Below, piece after piece: positions 36,668 to 48,730 of a stretch of DNA of 64,000 nt (its first letter is position 1; the number at the start of each line of letters is the position of its first letter). The notes under the pieces are model-generated. The model saw only the letters and a list, made by a program, of their open reading frames with translations. It searched no databases and had not been told where the DNA came from. The stretch spans positions 2,377,561 to 2,441,560 of the forward strand of contig CAWIUL010000011.1 in assembly GCA_963839305.1 (NCBI GenBank), given 5' to 3'. The position numbers and the translations under genes are program-made. Source of the DNA: an uncultured delta proteobacterium. GTDB taxonomy: Bacteria > Myxococcota_A > Polyangia > Polyangiales > Polyangiaceae.

Positions 36668-37177
36668 TCAAACCGACAGCCGCTCCTTCACGACGGTCCC
36701 GTCGTCGGCGAGGCCCGTGAGCTGCACGTAGTCGACGCCGAAGAGCTTGATCTTCACGAACACGCTCGAGATGCGCGCGGAGACGCCGTTGATGGTCGTG
36801 CTCGCGCTCGCGACGCATTTCCCGCCCTCGGCCCGCGTGTGGATCGTGATCGTGCGCGCCGGGAGACCTCGAAGGACGACCCGAACACCGTCGCGATCGA
36901 CGTCTTGCTTCTCGATTCCGAACGCGCGCTCTTCGCCTCGCGAGAGCGCCTCGGTCGCGTCCGGGCTCTTCTCGAGCATGCGCCAATACGCATGAACCGG
37001 CGCAGCGCCCACGGGCACGCACGTGTCGTCCACCGCGACCGCGTAGTGCACCTGGTTCTTGTTGGTGCTCTTCACGATGGATAGCGCGCTCTCGATCTCG
37101 GAAGACTGCGCGGCCTTCGTCGTGGGAGAGGCGAGCAAAAACGCAGCGGCGAGCGCGGTCGTGAGGATGTGTCTCAT
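36668..37177 (-). CDS. DUF4833-like secreted protein, intact
   Basis: The internal Met at 37177 gives 'MRHILTTALAAAFLLASPTTKAAQSSEIESALSIVKSTNKNQVHYAVAVDDTCVPVGAAPVHAYWRMLEKSPDATEALSRGEERAFGIEKQDVDRDGVRVVLRGLPARTITIHTRAEGGKCVAS...'. It has a signal peptide and lower GC. Its stop is 1 nt from the HlyD stop. Confidence 0.55.
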   Translation of the reverse strand: MRHILTTALAAAFLLASPTTKAAQSSEIESALSIVKSTNKNQVHYAVAVDDTCVPVGAAPVHAYWRMLEKSPDATEALSRGEERAFGIEKQDVDRDGVRVVLRGLPARTITIHTRAEGGKCVASASTTINGVSARISSVFVKIKLFGVDYVQLTGLADDGTVVKERLSV

Positions 37178-37266: not shown

Positions 37267-37917
37267 TCAACCGAGCAGCAGCGTGATCTCTTCCGAAGGC
37301 CGAGCCACGCGCGCGTCGTCGAGATCGAAGAACGCGACTCGCGAACGCGCGACATCGAGGATGGCGCAGCACGGCGCGGAGTCCAGCGCGAGCGTTCCCG
37401 GATTCACGAACACGAGATCGCCGAAGCGCCGAACCATGCGCTCGTGCGTGTGGCCGCCCACCGCGAGCGTGAAGCGCCCCTCGCGAAGGAGGGCGGCGAG
37501 GGCGTCGTTGCTCTCGAGCGCGTAGCCGTCGTCGTCGGGTCCGAGGCGCTGCATGTCGTCTTCGCCGACGCCGTGGCAGAGCAGCATGAGGCCCTTCGGC
37601 GTCGCGATCTCGCGCACCGTGGGGAGCGACTCGAGCAGCGTGACCGAAGCGCCGGCGAGCGCGTCGCGCGTGTGGGCGCGCGGCAGCGAGCGCATCGTGC
37701 CCGCGAGGAGCCAGCGTTCGTGATTTCCGCGAACACCGAGCGCACCAGCCGACGCGAGCAGCTCGCAGCACCGATCCACGTCGCCGTCTCCGTCGACGAC
37801 GTCACCGACGAAGAGCACGCGATCGACGTGCTCGTCCTCGAAGAGCTCGAGCGCCGTCGCGAGGCGCTCGTCCTCCGCGTGGATGTCTCCGAGGAGCCCG
37901 AAGCGCGCGGCCGTCAT
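37267..37917 (-). CDS. Metallophosphoesterase (YfcE/MPP family), intact
   Basis: 'MTAARFGLLGDIHAEDERLATALELF...VLFVGDVVDGDGDVDRCCELL...GVRGNHERW...LLCHGVGEDDM...AVGGHTHERMVRR..VFVNPGTLA' has the calcineurin-like motifs GDxH, GDxxD, GNHE and GH. Confidence 0.75.
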   Translation of the reverse strand: MTAARFGLLGDIHAEDERLATALELFEDEHVDRVLFVGDVVDGDGDVDRCCELLASAGALGVRGNHERWLLAGTMRSLPRAHTRDALAGASVTLLESLPTVREIATPKGLMLLCHGVGEDDMQRLGPDDDGYALESNDALAALLREGRFTLAVGGHTHERMVRRFGDLVFVNPGTLALDSAPCCAILDVARSRVAFFDLDDARVARPSEEITLLLG

Positions 37918-39276
37918 ACGGCGTCGCTCGCGCTCGCCATCTCGAAGTCGTCGCAGCAGATCATCGGCACGCGCATCACCTCACCCGAAGCGGGGACGCG
38001 ATAGGTCTGCGCCGTCATCGCGACGACGCGCGTGAGCATCTTCACGGGCGACTCGTTGAATCGAAAGTTTCTCACGGGGCGCGTGACACGACCATCTTCG
38101 ATCAAGAAGAGCCCGTCTCGCGTGAGCCCGGTGACGAGGATCTGCTTCGGATCGAGCCAGCGCGTGTACCAGAAGCGCGTGACGAGGAGCCCGCGACGAA
38201 CCCCCGCGACGAGGGCGGACGGCGAGCGGCCGAAGGCCGTCGCCGCAGACTCGGACGCGGACGGCGCGGTCGGCTCCGACGACGTGAGGTGCCACGTCGC
38301 GTGCGCGCCGGTCTCGGGGCGCTTGGCCTGCTTCGCCCAGAAACGTGTATAATACAATTGATTGAGCTTGCCGCCGTCGATCCACGTCGTCGGCAGGAGC
38401 GGCACGCCGTCGCCGTCCCACGGACAACCCGGCGTCGCGGGGTCGAGCGGGTCCGAGCGCAGCGTGACGCGCGGGTCGAAGATCGCGTCGCCGACGCGAC
38501 GGCCCGAGAAGAACGAGCGCCCCTGATCGGCGGCGCGCGCGTCGAGCGCCTCGATGAGGAACTCGAGCAAGTCGCCGACCGCGGCGGGCTCGAGGACGAC
38601 CGTGTAGCGCCCTGGGTCGAGCTTCGTCGGCGAGCGAGAGCGCTCGGCCCGGTCGGCCGCGGCCGTCGCGAGCGACGCGGCGTCGAGATCGCGCGCGCGC
38701 GTCCCTTCGGCGCCGGCCCACCCCGAGCCCGTGCCGTCGCGCGTTCGCATGGTGGTGGTCATCTGCGCGCGGGTCGAGGCGTGCTCGGCGCGGAGGCCCG
38801 CGCTCGTCGCGAGCGTCGCCCGCGTCGCGTGCGTCTCGACGAAGCCCGCGGCCGTGAGCGACGCCGAGTCCGCGCTCGAGGATCGCCGCGCGCGCCGCGG
38901 CCGCGCGCCCTTTCGCGTCCTGCCTCGCGGTGTCCTCGTCCCAAGCGCGTGCATTCTGCACGTATCGTTGCGGGCCGAGCGGCGGGAGCCACTCGGGGTC
39001 CTCCGGCGCGACGCGCGCGAGCTCCGCGGTGCGCGAGACGAGCTCCGCGAGCGACGCGTCGTCGACCTGGTTGGTCGCCGACTGCGCGTGGCGCCTCCCA
39101 AACGCGAGCTCGAGGCGCGCCTCGGTCGAGCTCACCTCGCCCGCGGTCGTGATCTCGGTCGCGGCGAAGCGCACGTGCCCCACATCGGTCTCGCGCACGG
39201 ACGCGATCGCGTCCGCGCCGAGCTTCGCAGCGTGCGACAAGACGCGATCGGCGATCGAGAAACCGCGCGCGCTCAC
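37914..39276 (-). pseudogene. pmbA: PmbA/TldD-family metalloprotease modulator (PmbA-like), 1 frameshift
   Basis: The GTG at 39276 overlaps the tldD stop (GTGA). The N-terminal frame reads 'VSARGFSIADRVLSHAAKLGADAIASVRETDVGHVRFAATEITTAGEV...'. The C-terminal frame reads '...GRYTVVLEPAAVGDLLEFL...GLLVTRFWYTRWLDPKQILVTGLTRDGLFLIEDGRVTRPVRNFRFNESPVKML'. The shift is at about 38.7 kb. Confidence 0.7.
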
Positions 39277-40844
39277 GCCTTGTCCTTTCGCTTGGTGTTG
39301 ATCACGTTCACGCCGCGAAACCGCGCGGGCGGACACCCATGGCTCACCGGGTTCGACTGCGCGGGCTCGCCCTTGCCGTCGACGAGCGAGCCGTGGAGCG
39401 TGAAGTGCTTCTTTCCGCCGAGCGCGTCGCACGCGTGCCAGAACTCGATGGTGTTCGACTGGTACGCCACGTCGCGCAGCGCGCCCGCGATCTTGCCGTT
39501 CTTGATCGCGTGGAACGTTTGTCCGCCGAACTGGAAGTTATAGCGCTGATGGTCGATCGACCACGAGCCGTCGCCGCTCACGAGCACGCCGTCGTCGGTC
39601 GAGGCGATGATGTCCTCGAGCGACACGTCCTTCTCGCTCGGCTCGAGCGACACGTTCGGCATGCGCTGAAACGGGATCGACGCGTAGTCCTCGGCATACG
39701 AGCACCCGCGCGAGCGCTTCTCGCCGATCCACGAGGCTTGGTCGCGTGTCGTCTGGAACGCCGCGAGCTTGCCCTTGTCGACGAGTCGCCATTTTTGGGT
39801 TTGCTCGCCGTCGTCGTCGTAGCCGCACGTCGCGAGGCCGCCGGGCGTGGTTTTATCCGCGTAGAACGAGAGGTCCTCGCGCGCGTACTCGAGCTTGCCG
39901 ATTTGATCCGGCGACGCGAAGCTCGTGCCCGCGAAGTTCGCCTCGTAACCGAGCGCGCGATCGAGCTCGGTGGAGTGGCCGATCGACTCGTGGATGACGA
40001 GCCACAGGTTGCTCGGCGCGAGGACGAGGTCACGCTTTCCCGGGGCGACCGACGGCGCGTGGAGCTTCTCGACCGCGTCCTCCGCGATCTTGCGCGCGTC
40101 GTTCTTGAGCGATGCGCGCGCGACGTGCTCCCAACCGGCCTGCATCGGCGAGAGCTCGTGCGAGCGCGTCACGAACTCGCCCGTCGCGTCGTCGGTCGCG
40201 GTGACCGTGTAGCGCGCCTCGACGCGCACGATGCGCTGCTCGATGAGCGAGCCCTCGGTCGAGGCGAACGTCTTGTCCTCCGAGAGGACGCGCGTCGCCC
40301 CATCCATGTATTTTGCACCTTTCACGGCGCGCGCCACGCTCCACACGTCGCGCAGGAGCGCGGCCTTCTCGGCGACCGTGATCGAGAACGGGTCGATGGC
40401 GACGGGCGTCGCCCAACGATCTCGATAGCGCCCGACGGGCGCGAGGATGATCGGCCGCTTGCGAGGTCCGGCGTCGGCGCGCGCGATCGCGACGGCGCGC
40501 TCGGCGGCGCGCGCGGCGCTCTCCTCGTCGACGTCGCCCGTCGCGGCGAAGCCCCACGATTGCGTCGCGCCGCCCTCGCCCGCGGTCACGACGAGCACGC
40601 GGACGCCGATGCCGTAGCTCACGTCGTCGCGCACCTCGACCACGTGATCCTCGCGCGTCGCGACGCCCTGATCGCGTCGCTTGACGACGCGCGCATCGGC
40701 GTACGTCGCGCCCGCGCGCTTCGCCGCTTCGAGCGCGCGACCGAGCACGTCCTCGACGCGCACCGGCGGCGCGACCGGCGCTCGCGGCGGCGTGCACGCG
40801 GCGACCGCGGTGAGGGCGAGGAACTCTCGTCGCGAGGCCTTCAT
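39273..40844 (-). CDS. tldD: TldD-family metalloprotease with a twin-arginine signal and a lipobox (exported)
   Basis: The intact ORF begins 'MKASRREFLALTAVAAC' (RR motif, hydrophobic core, VAAC lipobox). The TldD body has '...LVIHESIGHSTELD...' and a C-terminal 'GxC' metal-site region. Confidence 0.8.
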   Translation of the reverse strand: MKASRREFLALTAVAACTPPRAPVAPPVRVEDVLGRALEAAKRAGATYADARVVKRRDQGVATREDHVVEVRDDVSYGIGVRVLVVTAGEGGATQSWGFAATGDVDEESAARAAERAVAIARADAGPRKRPIILAPVGRYRDRWATPVAIDPFSITVAEKAALLRDVWSVARAVKGAKYMDGATRVLSEDKTFASTEGSLIEQRIVRVEARYTVTATDDATGEFVTRSHELSPMQAGWEHVARASLKNDARKIAEDAVEKLHAPSVAPGKRDLVLAPSNLWLVIHESIGHSTELDRALGYEANFAGTSFASPDQIGKLEYAREDLSFYADKTTPGGLATCGYDDDGEQTQKWRLVDKGKLAAFQTTRDQASWIGEKRSRGCSYAEDYASIPFQRMPNVSLEPSEKDVSLEDIIASTDDGVLVSGDGSWSIDHQRYNFQFGGQTFHAIKNGKIAGALRDVAYQSNTIEFWHACDALGGKKHFTLHGSLVDGKGEPAQSNPVSHGCPPARFRGVNVINTKRKDKA

Positions 40845-40958
40845 GTTCTGGGTCTCGGGCCATGTCCGCCACATGGACACAGCGACGAGCGCGCGCTCCA
40901 GTGGCTCGACGCTCGCACGATCGAGATCTCGCACCGCGACGACGACATGGTGGGGACC

Positions 40959-43900
40959 CTAAAACAAACCGATCGCAAAGTTGATCGCGCCGATGTCCTC
41001 GAACGACTGCTGGTTCAAGTTGAGCCCCGCGTCGAGCGCGATCGGGCCGACGGGGGTCTGCACGCGGATGCCGGTGCCGAGCGCGGCGCGGAGCGCGAAG
41101 CCGTGCGTGAACGGATAGGACGCGTCCTGCCAGAGGTTGCCGGTGTCGAAGAAGATGACCGTCTCGAACGGGCCCGTGATCGGGATGCGAAGCTCCGCGC
41201 GCGGGTTGACGAGCAGGTTGCCGCCGCGGATGGCGACCTGGTTCGGCTGGATCTTCCCGGCGTTGATCTGATCGACGGCGTCCTGCGGCATCATGCTGTC
41301 TTGTTGGAAGCTGCGCATCGAGTCGATGCCGCCCATGAAGTAGAAGCGGTCCGGATACGTCGTCGAGCTCGGGTTGAGCTGGATGATGCCGCCGACGCGC
41401 AGGATCGCCGCGAACGTGATCTTGAGGAACGGCAAGGGGACGTACCCGGAGAACGTGCTCGTGAGCTTGAGGAAGTGGCCGGGCTGCGACGCGACGCCTT
41501 GCGGAGGCGCGACGGGTTTGTTGAGCGGCGGCGGGATGACGTCGCACGTCGCGCAGATGATCTCGTTCGACGGAACGTCGCCCACGGGGAACCAGTTCAC
41601 GTGCTCGGCGGTGACGTTGAGATACGTGCCCTTGTGCGCGTTGAACGCGTTGTCGCGGCGATCCCACGACCACAAGAGGCGCTGCGAGAAGACGAGGCTC
41701 TGTCCCGCGGGCGCGCGGAGCAGGCGCTGAACGTCTAGGTTGTTTCCGGCCAGCGCGGCGGCCTCGGCGGGCGTCTGGTTGTTGAAGACGTTGAGGTTGT
41801 TGTATTCGGCGGTCGGCGTGAGCGCGAGCGCGTGCTGTTTGTGCACGCGCCAGTAGAGCGTCGGAAGCGCCGCGGCCTTGCCGATGATGAAGTACCGCTC
41901 GACGTCCTGGAGGTACACGCCGTCGAGGTTCGCGCGAACGTCGGGGCCTAGACCAACGTCCGGGAATCCGAGCGAGAGCGTCACGCGATAAGCGATGCGC
42001 TCGGCGACGCTGAGCTTCTGGAAGTTCTCGACGATCGTCGGGTCGGAGATGAGAAAATCCGGCAGGTACGAGACGCGCGCGCGGATGACCGCGCTGATCG
42101 CGCTGCCGAAGAGGTTCGTGTAGCCGTACTCGAGCGAGGCGCGCGCGCCCTCACCCGTCGAGAAGCCGAGCGACGGCTCGATGTACTGCGTCGGCTTCTC
42201 GGTGACCGTGATGATGACCGTCTTCTGGCGCTGCGGGACCTGCGCGTCCTGGAGGACGACGCTGACGCTCGAGAACACGTTGAGCGTCGCGATGCGCTCC
42301 TGCGTCTTTCGCACCTCGCCCATGCGATACGGCTCGCCGACCTTGAGCGCGACGCGCCGACGAATGACCGACTCGTTGGTGACCGCGTTTCCCTGGATGA
42401 CGATCTGCGAGACGATGACGCGCTCGCCCTCGTTGACGTCGAAGCGCGCGCGCGCCTGCGTGTTGTCGAGCGATTGCTGGATGTCGTACTTCGCGTCCGC
42501 GTAGAAGAAGCCGTCCTCGCGATAACGATCGACGATGCGTCGTCGCGCTTCGTCGATCTTGAGCGCGCTGACGGGCTTCCCGAGCTCGAGCGCGGCCGCG
42601 GCCGCGAGCTCGGTCTCGCTGATCGATTTGCGCGCCGAAGAACGCGAGGTCGTGGAGCGTCGTGCGCGGCCCGAGCTTCACCGGGACGCGCAGCTTCACG
42701 TGCGGCTCGCACTCGACGCCGCGGATCGCGTCGGGCACGCACGTGAAGCTCGGATCGAGCGGCGCGACCTGGACCGGCAGCCCGCTGCGGTCGTACGTGC
42801 ACGCGTCGGGGAGCGGCTGCGTGAACGGCATGGGGACGCAGCGGCCGGGCGGCGACTTCGGATCGCACCGCGCGCCGCATGACCTGCACGGGCCCGACGA
42901 GCGCGCTCAAGAAGCCCTCGTTTCGATAGAGCTCCTGCACGTGCGCGATGCCTTTGTCGTACGTCTCGGGCGAGAACGTCGCGCTCGGCTCGAGATCGAT
43001 CGGCGACGACGCGCGTCCCCGCGCCCCGCCGAGATCCTTGTCGACGACGCGCGGATCGGGATCGCGCGATCAAATCCGCGCCGGGGAGATCCTCGTCGAG
43101 GAAGCTATCGAGCTCGCGACCGATCGCGCTCGCCGAGCTCGGGCCGCCGCCGCTGAGGTTCTTGATCGCGTCGTTGCGAACGCACGGATATTGCCGCTGA
43201 ACGACGCCGACGCGCTCTCCCTCGCGCACGTGGAAGACGATGAACCGCGAGGGCTCCTCGCCCTTGCCGCGCAAATCGAAGGCGATCTGCGCGTCGAGGA
43301 ACCCGCGCGCGACGTAGAACCTCCGGAGCTTCTCGGCGAGGTGCTGCTCGCCCGTGTCGGGGTCGGTGTCGAGGCCGAGCGCGGTCTGGAGCGCGTCAGC
43401 GTCGTAGTGCACGTTGCCGTCGAAGCGCGTGAAGTAGCGCGGGCCGCTGTCGATGCGCACGCGGAGCGTGATGACCGATCCGTTCGGGTAACGCGCGAGC
43501 ACGAGGTCGTGCTTCACCCCGGCGTCGTAGTAGCCGGCCGTTCGCAGGCGGTTCTCGAGCGCGACGTCCGCTTGCTGGAGCGCTCCCTCGTCGACGCGAT
43601 CTCCTTCGTCGACCTCGTAGGGCTTGGTGTACGGCGCGAGGTCCTCCGCGCGCGCGCCGAACGGATAAAAGACGCGGCGCCCGATCTTTTGCGGCCTGCC
43701 GGCGTTGACGTCGACGAGCAACGAAATGCGCGTCGGCGAGTCGGTTTGGCGCGTCGAGAAGTCGACCTGCGCCTGCGGGTAGCCGTGGTGGGCGAACATC
43801 ACCTCGATGCGCCGCTTGCGGGTGCCGACGTCGCTCCCGAGGATTTCGCCGCCCTCCTCGAGCTGCGCCTCGCGGAGGATCTCCTCGCGGTCGAGTGGCG

Positions 43901-44336
43901 CGCCGTGCGTGTCGACGCGGAGCGCGTCGATGACGCGACGAGGAACGGCGTGAACGCGGATGCGCACGCCGTCGCCCTCGGGGATCATGTTCACCTTCGC
44001 CGTGCCGTAGAGCCCCGTGCGCGTCGCCTCGAGGAGCGCGGCGCGCGCCATGTCGGCGCGGAACGGATCGCCGAGGTGGATCGAGCGAAGGATGGGCGGC
44101 TTGATGTCGTCCCACGGATCCTCGTCTTGCACGACCTCCGCCGCGTGGACGGGCTTGCCCTCGAACGCGCTCAAATCCGGCGGCGGCGCGGGCACGCTCG
44201 CCTGCGGCGCGCTCAGCTGCGGCATCTCGGGCAGCGTGATCGGCGTGACGCTGATCGGCGCGCCGGCGCGCGCGACCGCATCCACGAGGAGCGCGGCGGC
44301 GAAGAGCGCGCCGCCCAACCAGCTATTTGAACTCAA
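40959..44336 (-). pseudogene. Omp85-family outer-membrane protein (BamA/TamA-like: POTRA domains plus a C-terminal 16-strand barrel), at least 3 frameshifts
   Basis: The N-terminal ORF 42696..44336 has a signal peptide and POTRA-like repeats. The C-terminal ORF 40959..42323 ends '...GAINFAIGLF', a beta-barrel signature. The middle segments are in other frames ('QVAPLDPSFTCVPDAIRGVECEPHVKLRVPVKLGPRTTLHDL'). Confidence 0.7.
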
Positions 44337-47300
44337 CTCTCCACCGCAAGTCGACGCCTAGGTTCCCGACTGCGCTGGATGTTACGTCATTGTTCACGTT
44401 GTCGTACGAACCGAGAATGCTGAAATTCTGGCCCAATCGCCATCGAATGTTGGCGTAGAGCTCGCGTTGGTCCGAGGCGAGGGTGGTCGCGACGTTCGCG
44501 CTCACGTCCTTCGTGATGCGCTTGCTGACCATGACCGTCGGCTCCGTGCGGCCCGAGTGCGGCGAGTACGAGCTGCCGAACTTGAAGTCGTCGATGATCG
44601 GGATGGCCTTCTTCACCTGCTCGTTCGCGCCCGTGATCGTCGAGAGCGCCTCGAGCGCGATGCCTGCGCCGAGCGTGCCCGCCTGGATCTGGTCGGCCTC
44701 GGCGCGCGTGATGCCGATCGAGAGGAGCAGGATGATGTCCTCCTGCGAGAGCGGTGGATCGCTCGTGAGCTCGATTTTGAGGTTGTCCGTGTCGCCGGAC
44801 GCGTGGAGCGAGATGCGCCAGAGGTTACCCGTCGTGCTGCCCGAGGAGCTCGCGCCCGAGGTCGTCTGCGCCGACGTGCGCCGGTATTCGGTCATCGCTT
44901 GGATGTCGACGTGCGCCGAGATGCGCGTCGCGTCGTCGAAGCGAATCACGGCCTGCTGGATGTCGAACACGCTGTTGCCGAACGGCAGGCGAAGGTGACC
45001 GCCGGAGAGCGCGTGCATGTCGCCGCGGAGGCCGAAGCGCTGGTTCGTGCCGGTCACGTTGAGCGCGTTGTCGAGCTGGATTTGCGCGTCGACGACGTTG
45101 TTCTTGATGCGAAGCGGCGTCTTCGCGCGGACGCGGAGGTCCATCGTGACCGCGTCTTGTGACGGGTCGTAGGTCTCGATCTCGGTGCGCTTGGCGGCGC
45201 CGAGCGAGCCGAGGTCGCCCACCATGTTGATCGGACGCGTGTACTCGACCGAGGCGATCGTGACGTCGCCAGTGAGGTGCGGGAGCTTGCGTTTGTCGAG
45301 GCCGCTGTCCTCGATCGCGAGCGCGAGATCCGCGTCGAGCCCGGCGCTGATGCCCTCGGCGGGCGCGAAGCGCACGTTGCGCGCGCCGAGCGTGAGCTCG
45401 ACGTTGCCGAGCCCGAGGTTTCGGATCGGAACGCGGCCGCCGAGCGAGAGCGTGCCGCCCGCGAATTTCGCGACGCCGCGCGCGACGCGGATCTCCGACG
45501 CGTCCGCGCGCAGGTCGATCTCGAGATCGTTCACCGGCGACGGGAGCCCGCGCACGAGGAGCTCCGTCGCGCGCACCTTCGCGTCGCCTTCGAGGAGCGG
45601 GTCCGCGACGCGCCCCGTGAGCCGCACCGAGCCCGAGAACGAGCCCGTCGCGCGATCGAGCTTCGGGACGACGCCCGCGAGCACGGACAAATCCACCGGC
45701 GCGAGATCCGCGCGCACGTCGAGCGTCGGATCCCCGAACGGGTCGCGCACGTCGCCTTGCATCGTGATCGCGCCGCTCACGCCCGGCGCCGACAAATCGA
45801 GCTCGAGGGGCGGGAGCGTCACCTTGTTGCCCGCGAGCACGATCGGCGCGCCCGTCGGCTTCAGCACGAGCTTCTTGCCGTCGTCGTCGATCGCGAGCGA
45901 CCTCGGCACGAAGCGCGCGGACGCGGCCGCGTAGTCGCCTTGCTTCACGTGGTCGATCGTCACGTCGCCGGTGAGCTCGCCCTTGAGCTTCGAGAGCGTG
46001 CCCTCCGAGATGCCCGCGGCTTTGACGAGCGACTCGATCGCGAGCTTCTGGACCTTCAGGTCGCCCGAGAATTCCATCTGCCGCGCGCGGGTCGCCGTGA
46101 CGCGATCGAGGTGCACCTGGCCGCCGAAGAGATCGCCCGAGACGATGTAGCTCCCGTGCGAAGAGGTGTCGGCGATGTACGCGGCCTTGTCGAACGGCCC
46201 GCCGAGCGGGCCCCCGCAGTGCGTCTTTCCGATGACGTTCGGCTTGCCGGCGAGCTGCGTCATCGTGACGTGCAGCTTCGAGGCGCCGAGATCTCCGCTT
46301 CGCACGTGGATGGGCGAGACGTCGACGTCCGCGTCGGCCGTGAACGCGTCGATCGTGCCGCTCACCTGCGCGAGTCCGGAGACGCTGCCCTCGAGCTCGG
46401 GCCCGAGCGTCCCGAGCGTCTGAAGGCGCGAGAGCGGCACGCCCTCGAGCACGACGTTGCCGTGGAGGATGCCGCCCGGCTTGATGGACGCCGACCCGAG
46501 GAGCGACCCGAACGTCGCGCCGTCCTTCTCGCGCCGCACTTTGTGGAGCGTGAACGCGTGCACGTCGAGATCGGCGCCCTGGAAGCCGGCGGCGCGGTCG
46601 CGCCATCGCAGATCCGAGATCCGCGTCGCCGTCGTCGAACTTCTCGCCGTAGAGCTCCACGTTCGACAGGTGCGGGCTCGCGTGGAGCGAGATGAATCCG
46701 CCCCCACACTCGTCCTCGCGTCCGCCGAGCGCGAAGTGGAACGTCGTGTCGCCCGCGAGATCGCCGTCGATGCCGTCGAAGCGCGGGTCGTCGGCGAGCG
46801 AGAAGACGTCGAGCAGGTCGCGCAGGTTGAGCCGCTGCGCGAGCACGTTCGCGTCCATGCGCATCGAGGCGCTGCCGCCGAACTCGACCTTCCCCGAGGG
46901 CATCTCGTAGGTGCTCTTGTTCTTCTGCGCCTTGACGTTCTTGAGCGTGAGGACCTGCGTCTCGCCCGGCTCGACCTCGGCGTGCACCGACGTGATGTTG
47001 CCGAACGGCATGCCCGCGATCGCGAAGCCGTCGATGCGACCGTCGCCGCTCACCTTGGGGTTGCTCATCGACGTGCCCACGTCGACCTTCACGTCCGCGG
47101 TGCCGGCGATCGGAATGCCCGCGAGCGGCGTGATGTCCGCGAGGCCCACGTGCGCGTGACCGACCTCGACGCGGAGCTCGTTCGCGAACCCGAGGAGCAC
47201 GAAGCCGCCGTCGATGTGCGAGTGCGCGAGATCGGCGTGGGCGTTCTTGAACTGCACCGAGTCGGGCCTCACGGCGAGGTGCGCGCCGAGCTTGGCCTCG

Positions 47301-48730
47301 GTGAAGCCGATGAGGCGCTGCCGCGTCGGGTCCTTCACCCATTTGTCCCAGACGGCGAAGTTCTTCGTCGTCGCCGTGAAGTCGCCGTCGAGCTTGAGCG
47401 GGTCGAGCTTGCCCGAAAAATTGGGCATGTGGATGTCGACGACGTCCCAGCCCACGTGCGGGTGCTCCGCGACGCCGAGCGCGACCATGAGCGCCGCGAA
47501 ATCGACGTTCTCGATGTCCGCCGCGGCGCCGAGCGTCTTCGCGAGCGGCTCGACGTGAACGTCCTTGAGGTGAACGGTGCCGCCCGCGAGCTGCACGATC
47601 GTCTTCGGGCTCTTGATGACGTTGTCACGCATCGTGAGCTCGGAGTCGAAGTAGTCCGCGAAGCGATAGCGGTCGACGCGGATGCCACCCGCGGTGACCC
47701 TTCCGCTCACCTCGGGCATCTGCATCGTCGAGGTGAAGCGAACGTCCGCGTCGACGCCGACCCAGCCCTCGACGTCGGGTAGCTTCGCGAGGCGCGTGGC
47801 CGCGCCGACGGGGACGCGCGCGCGCACGTGGCCGCTCAAATCGGGGAGCTCGCCGTCCTTCGGGAGCTTCACGCGCGCGTGGCTCAGCTCGAGCTCGACG
47901 CGGCGCTGGTCGTTCGGAGCGAGCTTGCACGGTGGCGTCGTGAGCTTCCCGGGGTCGAGGTCGGCGGCCCCGGTGAGCTCGAACCTGCGCACGGTGACGT
48001 CGTCCGGCGTCACGCGCACGCGCGCGTCGAGCGTACAGATCGCGTCCTCGTCGAACGCGCGACCGGTCTCGGTGTCGCGCTCGCGGATGACGTAGCTCTC
48101 CCCTGCGCGGAGCGCGATCTCGAGCGACGAGCCGCGGTCGGTGTCGTCCGTCTGCACGTCGAGATCGAGCTCGTTCGCCTTGACGTGGACGTCGTCGATC
48201 GTGAGGTCCACCTCGCCGTCGGTGATCGCGAACGCGTCGAACGGGAGGTGAATCGGGCCCGTCTGCTTCTTCGTCTCCTGCGGCTTGAGCGCGAGGTTCT
48301 GGAGCTTGCCGTCCTTGATGACGAGGCGCGCGCGCGGCGCGTCGATGTCGATCTGGTCGATGAGCAGCTTGCCGCTCATCAGCGCGAAGAACCGCGGGTG
48401 CACCGTGGCTCGGCGAGCCGTCAGCGCCGGACCGCCCCCGTCGGACGACTCGATCTGCACGTTCGCGAGCTCGAGCGAGAGCGGCCAGACGTGCATCCGC
48501 ACGTCGAAGCGGGCCACGATGCCCTGATCGCGGAGCGCCTTCGCCGTCTCCTTCATCGCCCAGTCACGGGCGTAGGCCGAGCGGATGAACCCGACCGCGA
48601 CGAACGGCAGCACCCCCGCGATGGCCAAAATGACCGACAAAACACGCGCGAGCGCCCGCCCCACCTTGGGGCGCTTTCGCCGCCGGGGCACCGGCGGGAG
48701 GCTCGATTCAGCGTGGGTCAAACGGGGCAT
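44323..48730 (-). pseudogene. tamB: TamB/AsmA-family translocation-and-assembly-module protein (about 1468 aa, N-terminal TM anchor, C-terminal DUF490), 1 frameshift near 46.6 kb
   Basis: The first ~790 aa of ORF 44825..48730 are plausible and then turn R-rich. ORF 44323..46707 picks up at 'ISDLRWRDRAAGFQGADLDVHAFTLHKV' and runs to 'GVDLRWRVEFK'. It overlaps the Omp85 start by 14 nt. Confidence 0.75.

Follow-up and report, generated by a model that had tools for sequence, protein, structure and literature searches.

How is a two-subunit protease handled when one of its subunits carries an export signal and the other carries none? The literature describes TldD/E as a protease of the cytoplasm, with roles in microcin B17 maturation and CcdA degradation. 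The question is raised by a stretch of 64,000 nucleotides (the window) from contig CAWIUL010000011.1 of an uncultured Polyangiaceae bacterium, on the minus strand of which a TldD-like gene with a predicted twin-arginine translocation (Tat) lipoprotein signal is followed directly by a PmbA-like (TldE-like) gene without a signal. The answer that we consider probable, with considerable room for doubt, is that a TldD/TldE-related zinc peptidase has been redirected to the envelope of the cell, with the signal on TldD exporting the assembled pair and PmbA travelling as a hitch-hiker. A sequence-only reading of the locus had proposed this central idea, a Tat-targeted TldD lipoprotein with a signal-less PmbA as candidate hitch-hiker, and it is now supported by the conservation of the signal, the coupling of the two genes and the existence of reciprocal loci. 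The features that the argument needs are the following.

39273..40844, minus strand: TldD-like metallopeptidase gene, predicted catalytic and signal-bearing subunit, 523 residues (Pfam, structure model)
40794..40844, minus strand: predicted Tat-type lipoprotein signal peptide, MKASRREFLALTAVAA and then C (direct reading, conservation)
40827-40832, minus strand: codons of the RR pair (sequence)
40794-40805, minus strand: codons of the lipobox VAAC (sequence)
40758..40793, minus strand: Pro-rich tether TPPRAPVAPPVR, from Cys17 to the first helix at about residue 30 (AlphaFold2 model; relatives align from VEDVLGRAL)
39975..39992, minus strand: HESIGH zinc-binding and catalytic motif, residues 285-290 (aligns with E. 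coli HEAVGH)
39273..39276, minus strand: GTGA overlap of the PmbA-like GTG start with the TldD-like TGA stop at 39273-39275 (sequence)
38881..39276, minus strand: N-terminal part of the PmbA/TldE-like gene, residues 1-132, frame -2 (89% identity to the intact relative P0121 by tblastn)
38874-38880, minus strand: frameshift site, seven nucleotides (CTCGAGC) where six are expected, beside a GATC (protein-to-DNA alignment)
37914..38873, minus strand: C-terminal part of the PmbA/TldE-like gene, frame -3 (third Pfam domain at E 3.9e-40, and second domain)

Predicted export signal of the TldD-like protein

The 523-residue protein is read from an in-frame ATG at 40844, within a minus-strand open reading frame (ORF) that spans 39273..40934, and its N-terminus reads MKASRREFLALTAVAAC (MKASRREFLALTAVAACTPPRAP; MKASRREFLALTAVAACTPPRAPVAPPVRVEDVLG). 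The motif S4-R5-R6-E7-F8-L9 fits the S/T-R-R-x-F-L consensus, the 13 residues from F8 to P20 are uncharged, and V14-A15-A16-C17 fits the lipobox consensus [LVI][ASTVI][GAS]C quoted in PMC12462473. The lipobox and the lipoprotein class that combines a Tat signal with cleavage by signal peptidase II (Tat/SPII) are described in PMC9287161, PMC2945643 and PMC12462473. From the lipobox, Cys17 is predicted to be the site of both lipidation and cleavage. In Myxococcus xanthus, Lys at position +2 marks inner-membrane lipoproteins (PMC3222651). The residue at +2 is Thr here, which weakly suggests that the protein would not be retained in the inner membrane, by a rule that may not apply to this lineage. 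In the AlphaFold2 model, residues 1-24 have a per-residue confidence (pLDDT) below 50; residues 5-14 form a helix, 15-29 a coil and 30-43 a second helix, and the confident fold begins at about residue 30.

The signal is conserved. R5 and R6 are invariant in an alignment of 21 sequences (A1) that reaches down to 57% identity. Among the 120 nearest homologues (57-81% identity), 102 have the RR motif and 88 a lipobox-like Cys, and most of those without one or the other are truncated N-terminally. The named near homologues come from Polyangiaceae, Labilithrix or Myxococcales. Both elements of the signal noted in the sequence-only reading, the RR motif and the VAAC lipobox, are thus read directly in the window and recur in the majority of its near relatives.

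A coupled partner without a signal

The PmbA-like gene starts within the stop codon of the TldD-like gene, the GTGA overlap implying that the two would be translationally coupled. Its N-terminus (MSARGFSIADRVLSHAAKLGADAIASVRETD; MSARGFSIADRVLSHAAKLG) has neither an RR motif nor a hydrophobic stretch, the one possible upstream extension (from a GTG at 39432, MRRARRKEALHAPRLARRRQGRARAVEPGEPW) is rich in charged residues and shares its DNA with the coding region of TldD, and 120 PmbA homologues begin at the same position as the protein of the window. The overlap and the lack of a signal, both of which had been pointed out earlier, are therefore confirmed. Since the HExxxH motif is absent from the reconstructed protein, the PmbA-like subunit is the predicted non-catalytic partner. 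Its N-terminal fragment taken alone has no Pfam match, and PF01523 is partly present in homologues of the partner. Among solved structures the closest relative is the Bacteroides protein 1VPB (BT3649), at E 1.9e-10. An in-frame insertion of 12 residues, SESAATAFGRSP, distinguishes the PmbA-like protein from the 88%-identical P0121 and lies in an Ala/Ser/Pro-rich loop (~38215-38250, minus strand).

Signals and pairing across phyla

A scan of contigs from one genome per species returned 598 relatives, of which the best 80 loci were examined. They come from Myxococcota, Ignavibacteriota/Chlorobiota, Bacteroidota, Acidobacteriota, Gemmatimonadota, Armatimonadota, Verrucomicrobiota and one gammaproteobacterial metagenome-assembled genome (MAG), and hold 95 TldD-like ORFs, 92 of them with complete N-termini. 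These N-termini fall into four types.

RR followed by at least 12 uncharged residues: 74 of 92
R-K variant (Bacteroidota): 7 of 92
RR-x-F-L with a shorter uncharged stretch: 8 of 92
No extension (all Pyrinomonadaceae): 3 of 92

A signal with RR or R-K is accordingly present in about 89 of the 92, across at least seven phyla that include both Myxococcota and Bacteroidota, the two groups in which the earlier reading had proposed to look for RR signals. Outside the lineage of the window the signal ends in an AxA-type site, and because a lipobox is found in only two of 79 signals there, the predicted lipid anchor was added to an older Tat signal in this lineage specifically.

The pairing, too, is conserved. 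A PmbA-like gene lies directly downstream and on the same strand in 87 of the 95 cases, with a four-nucleotide overlap (ATGA or GTGA) in 24 of the 87 pairs and a gap of at most 30 nucleotides in 48 more (72 of 87 in all). No credible signal was found on the PmbA-like partner in the 87 adjacent pairs; two partners were flagged for a hydrophobic upstream extension, and both extensions are alternative-frame readings of the 3' end of TldD in genomes of high GC content. The wider protein searches agree, with a signal on PmbA in none of the 120 nearest homologues and in one of 150 representatives of 50%-identity clusters (P0380, discussed below).

Several further arrangements were seen among the loci. 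Tandem arrays of two or three TldD-like/PmbA-like pairs, in which every TldD has an RR signal to itself, are found at many loci of Bacteroidota and Gemmatimonadota (L051, L054, L058, L060, L066, L068, L069, L073 and L077), and several of the Bacteroidota copies have R-K (for example KRKDFL or NRKDFL) in place of R-R. In three Pyrinomonadaceae MAGs (L012, L014 and L017, about 51% identical to the TldD-like protein of the window) the protein starts with MKDLADVALN at the folded domain and neither subunit has a signal; these pairs may be secondary reversions to the cytoplasm. A subset of signal-less PmbA-like proteins among the homologues of P0380 (P0414-P0507) has an N-terminal extension of 20-35 residues that is rich in Lys and Arg and lacks a hydrophobic stretch, and a few of these are labelled Acidiferrales or Terriglobia.

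Reciprocal loci

At the reciprocal loci (L087/L088 and L089) it is the PmbA-like protein that carries a Tat signal and lipobox, starting MNRRKFLETAAAMGGAC or MTMDRRQFLKSGAAAVGAAWGLSGC. PmbA-like proteins with such a signal of their own are P0380 (MNRRKFLETAAAMGGACLVKACG) and P0391 (MTMDRRQFLKSGAAAVGAAWGLSGC, from a Planctomycetes MAG), which are 51% identical to each other. The TldD-like genes of these loci (HESVGH; 484 and 483 residues) begin directly with the first helix of the fold and are coupled to the PmbA-like genes by ATGA. They cannot have a signal, since an in-frame stop lies two to three codons upstream of both. Compared with the TldD-like protein of the window and with P0121, respectively, the two kinds of subunit show 38% and 37% identity.

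Across the family, then, the signal is on TldD only in 87 pairs, on PmbA only at two related loci, on neither subunit at three loci, and on both in no pair. Independent export of the two proteins would need a signal on each; one signal per pair is the pattern predicted for co-export of a pre-formed complex.

This distribution bears on a different account, in which the TldD-like lipoprotein is exported alone, as a monomer or homodimer, and the PmbA-like protein remains cytoplasmic with a separate role, possibly in homodimeric form. The PmbA-like protein does lack a signal, PmbA/TldE proteins crystallise as homodimers (1VPB, 1VL4, 3QTD and 3TV9; PMC5810440), and an active homodimeric TldD has been reported in Sulfolobus, as cited in PMC5810440. 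However, a cytoplasmic role for PmbA leaves the tightly coupled pairing of 87 of 95 genes across phyla to be explained, and E. coli TldD/TldE is an obligate heterodimer in which both subunits are needed for activity, only TldD binds metal and the TldD homodimer is unstable (PMC5810440). At the reciprocal loci, moreover, the same arrangement would export the non-catalytic subunit and strand the catalytic TldD, which makes little sense unless the two travel together. We regard export of TldD alone as unlikely.

Family, fold and catalytic site

The TldD-like protein matches Pfam PmbA_TldD_1st, 2nd and 3rd (PF01523/PF19290/PF19289), all above cutoffs. E. coli TldD (5NJ5_A) is matched at E 1e-12 with about 22% identity. 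The AlphaFold2 model (pLDDT 83.5, predicted TM-score 0.81) finds its best Foldseek matches in the TldD chains of 5NJC/5NJ5 (E 3.5e-33, TM-scores 0.75/0.81), and its superposition on the TldE chains is poorer. The models for canonical TldD equivalogs are not reached (NCBIfam NF008006, 54.3 bits against a cutoff of 513; NF040952, 122.4 against 635), and the protein is a distant member of the family, not a canonical TldD. Public labels for this large clade are limited to 'TldD/PmbA family protein' or 'TldD protein'.

Alignment A1 shows no variation at H285, E286 and H290 of the HESIGH motif. Cys454, which supplies the third zinc ligand in the E. coli enzyme, is not conserved; in the phmmer alignment it stands opposite K491, beside a two-residue gap. 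An invariant Asp489 (DGKGEP, 39378-39380 region) lies two residues from the Cys454-equivalent position, across that gap. Asp can replace the Cys of the third ligand, for example in Gemmatimonas TldD (Ghilarov et al., PMC5810440). Further along the same alignment, H502 is invariant and C504 nearly so.

Proposed export of the assembled protease

In the scheme that we propose, coupled translation would yield equimolar TldD-like and PmbA-like subunits, which would fold, bind zinc and assemble in the cytoplasm as a closed hollow shell of about 104 kDa (55.0 kDa for the mature TldD-like protein and 48.9 kDa for the PmbA-like protein). Cargo of up to about 150 kDa is moved by the Tat system (PMC6708511). 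The Tat translocase, whose genes in the source genome are located outside the window, would move the whole complex by means of the single signal on TldD, with PmbA as the hitch-hiker; Lgt and signal peptidase II (LspA) would process Cys17 by lipidation and cleavage, and the Pro-rich linker would hold the protease on the membrane, facing the periplasm. In that position it would shorten unfolded peptides from one end, in the manner of TldD/E. Assembly ahead of export would also shield a promiscuous active site. The features of the sequence and their conservation, the coupling of the genes, the fold and the reciprocal signals of related pairs are established by the comparisons above; that the subunits form a heterodimer, that export depends on Tat, that the protein is lipidated and its partner co-exported, and which membrane and substrates are involved, is what we infer in drawing this scheme.

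The pair has three sets of known relatives. E. coli TldD/TldE (PmbA), the protease that processes microcin B17 (MEROPS M103, PDB 5NJ5), shares with it the three-domain fold, the HExxxH motif on TldD only and the adjacency of the genes. The E. coli heterodimer forms a closed sphere of about 65 Å with a narrow channel that admits only unfolded peptides (PMC5810440), and a hollow heterodimer with the same restriction would be expected here. The protein of the window differs in its Tat signal, lipobox and Pro-rich tether, and it is predicted to reside in the envelope, not in the cytoplasm. It differs also in being only about 22% identical to E. coli TldD and at Cys454, which is not conserved and near which its clade has the invariant Asp489.

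The second set is formed by the Tat hitch-hiker complexes. According to PMC10924467 and PMC4273604, the cargo of the Tat system is folded and includes complexes with a signal on one partner only, and signal-less subunits are thought to bind their partner before export (the same sources; Rodrigue et al. 1999). As they are described there, NiFe hydrogenase (small and large subunits), DmsAB and PaoABC resemble the pair of the window in having one signal-bearing subunit, co-transcribed genes and a cargo within Tat size. Unlike these redox enzymes with their complex cofactors, the pair would be a single-zinc protease shell with a lipoprotein as its carrier, and its co-export is deduced from comparative genomics alone.

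Tat lipoproteins, which are known from haloarchaea and actinobacteria and have their own class (Tat/SPII) in SignalP 6.0, make up the third set; the RR, the short h-region and the lipobox (VAAC in the window) are held in common. In contrast to them, the host is Gram-negative and related to Polyangiaceae, the cargo would be a two-subunit complex and the lipoprotein is a predicted one.

Each of three elements, TldD/PmbA proteins, Tat hitch-hiking and Tat lipoproteins, is known individually. Full-text searches found no paper on a Tat signal on TldD/PmbA, or on its export; they did not cover the main review of the family, so that an earlier mention is possible. For the family as a whole, we lean somewhat towards a large clade (thousands of 90%-identity clusters in at least seven phyla) of envelope 'pencil-sharpener' TldD/E proteases that would be exported pre-assembled by Tat hitch-hiking, with a signal interchangeable between the subunits and, in Polyangia-type myxobacteria, a Tat-lipoprotein anchor. 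If this is true, a closed protease shell without a redox cofactor is a new class of Tat hitch-hiking cargo, and many soil and sediment phyla have a periplasmic pathway that trims unfolded peptides processively. In that case, the exchange of the signal between subunits that occurs in nature would also give a clean genetic system for testing co-export.

Evidence against co-export

Several observations weigh against co-export of the pair. The heterodimer is extrapolated from a homologue with only about 22% identity. With the single sequence of the window, the Tat-signal hidden Markov model (HMM) TIGR01409 scores 15.3 bits (E 0.019), just below its cutoff of 16.7 bits, and Pfam TAT_signal (PF10518) has no match on the TldD-like N-terminus. 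The reading frame of pmbA is interrupted in the deposited assembly. The two reciprocal loci are relatives of each other (51% identity), and one evolutionary event may account for both. The metallophosphoesterase encoded third in the apparent operon is without a signal peptide, and membership of an operon does not by itself imply export.

Integrity of the PmbA-like gene

The interruption of pmbA could mean that the frameshift is real and the partner a pseudogene, with the TldD-like lipoprotein alone or decaying. It is present in the deposited assembly, in which the gene is called as a 282-residue fragment (P0134). Alignment to the intact 441-residue relative P0121 gives a match at about 88% identity in frame -2 up to AARAAI, ending at 38881, and in frame -3 from ADSASLTAAGF (38873) to the stop at 37914; the two parts are 89% and about 88% identical to P0121, and neither contains a further stop. 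The single frameshift noted in the sequence-only reading is thus real as a feature of the assembly, and its position is corrected from about 38.7 kb to 38874-38880, a difference of about 170 nucleotides.

The frameshift is one of five in about 10 kb, distributed over three of six syntenic genes, as seen when the intact proteins of two close relatives (L081 and L082) are aligned to the window. The other four are these.

~46615, minus strand: frameshift in the TamB-like gene
~43065, ~42880 and ~42628, minus strand: frameshifts in the TamA/Omp85-like gene

The TldD-like, metallophosphoesterase and DUF4833 genes are intact in the same comparison. Protein similarity is good on either side of all five frameshifts. 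A GATC lies within six nucleotides of four of the five, where about 0.1 per site would be expected at random, and for the fifth a GATC falls within the positional uncertainty. A CTCGAG methylation motif was considered as the cause and rejected: GATC is common to the five sites, and CTCGAG is not. The clustering of GATC-linked frameshifts inside otherwise continuous similarity points to systematic errors of sequencing or base calling, such as could arise in a long-read assembly when a motif is methylated. The pmbA frameshift is probably an assembly error and not gene decay. Two halves without further stops, and four more frameshifts within about 9 kb in the TamB-like and TamA-like genes, with at least four of the five near GATC, speak against a pseudogene, which we think improbable.

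Type of signal and start codon

Co-export of a folded pair presupposes a Tat signal. On the HMM scores given above, the evidence for such a signal in the single sequence is borderline; the h-region is shortened by the lipobox relative to the 29-position TIGR01409 model, and the case stands on conservation. An ordinary Sec lipoprotein signal, in which the RR is incidental, would have TldD exported unfolded and would make hitch-hiking by PmbA impossible. Such a signal would agree with the short h-region (about 10 residues), the canonical lipobox end and the HMM score just below cutoff. It does not agree with an RR and a following F/L that are invariant or nearly so across phyla, with or without a lipobox; most relatives combine RRxFL with an AxA end and no Cys, which is a Tat signature. 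We therefore hold a Sec signal to be very unlikely.

The choice of start codon also bears on the signal. One further feature is relevant here.

40845..40934, minus strand: upstream in-frame stretch with alternative starts, GTG at 40934 and ATG at 40874 (coding status unsupported)

The 120 best homologues are about 520 residues long and cover 93-95% of the 553-residue ORF, with RR 2-10 residues after the annotated Met in the 120 nearest. Similarity of relatives' proteins to the window starts at 40832 (tblastn), and the 30 residues upstream show no conservation among homologues. The public record for the 3.65-Mb source contig holds exactly the 523-residue product from MKASRR, and the 533-residue and 553-residue versions are not on public record. 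The lengths of the homologues, the position at which similarity begins and the deposited product favour the ATG at 40844, which is supported as the predicted start of the TldD-like gene. The possibility, raised by the sequence-only reading, that translation begins at an upstream Met and the RR lies too far inside the protein is unsupported. The three candidate starts (40934, 40874 and 40844) all lack a clear Shine-Dalgarno sequence ahead of them, and a promoter and terminator scan found no promoter-like site, a result that is uninformative for the choice of start; its sole feature was a weak hairpin where the Omp85 gene ends. Tat signals tolerate long n-regions, and it is plausible that even an upstream start would leave a Tat signal in place. 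That both proteins are cytoplasmic, with a true start at the upstream GTG or ATG and the RR segment internal or uncleaved, has in its favour the existence of these in-frame starts and the equal lack of a Shine-Dalgarno sequence at all three, and is scarcely credible in view of the unconserved upstream residues, the lengths and alignment of the homologues, the single recorded product and the tolerance of Tat signals for long n-regions.

Gene neighbourhood

The pair is surrounded by genes on the same strand.

37267..37917, minus strand: metallophosphoesterase gene, third of the apparent operon, its ATG overlapping the PmbA-like stop as ATGA (Pfam Metallophos_2, E 3e-17)
~36668-37177, minus strand: DUF4833-like gene after the metallophosphoesterase, with a Sec-type N-terminus MRHILTTALAAAFLLASPTTKAAQS (order kept in close relatives only)
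40959-47812, minus strand: TamB-like gene and large Omp85/POTRA (TamA-like) gene, directly upstream of the TldD-like gene (as in L081 and L082)

The TamB/TamA-like, metallophosphoesterase and DUF4833 neighbours are confined to close relatives and are absent from the 80 more distant loci. The contexts in Acidobacteriota and in other myxobacteria are unrelated, and the pair itself is the only conserved unit. We considered deducing a function from the neighbours and rejected it, as no conserved neighbour points to substrates; for the same reason, the gene context gives no support to the role in processing secreted peptides or bacteriocins that had been suggested for the exported protease. In L081 and L082 a small Mpo1-like gene on the opposite strand lies between Omp85 and TldD; it has no match in the window, where the two genes are separated by a gap of 115 nucleotides.

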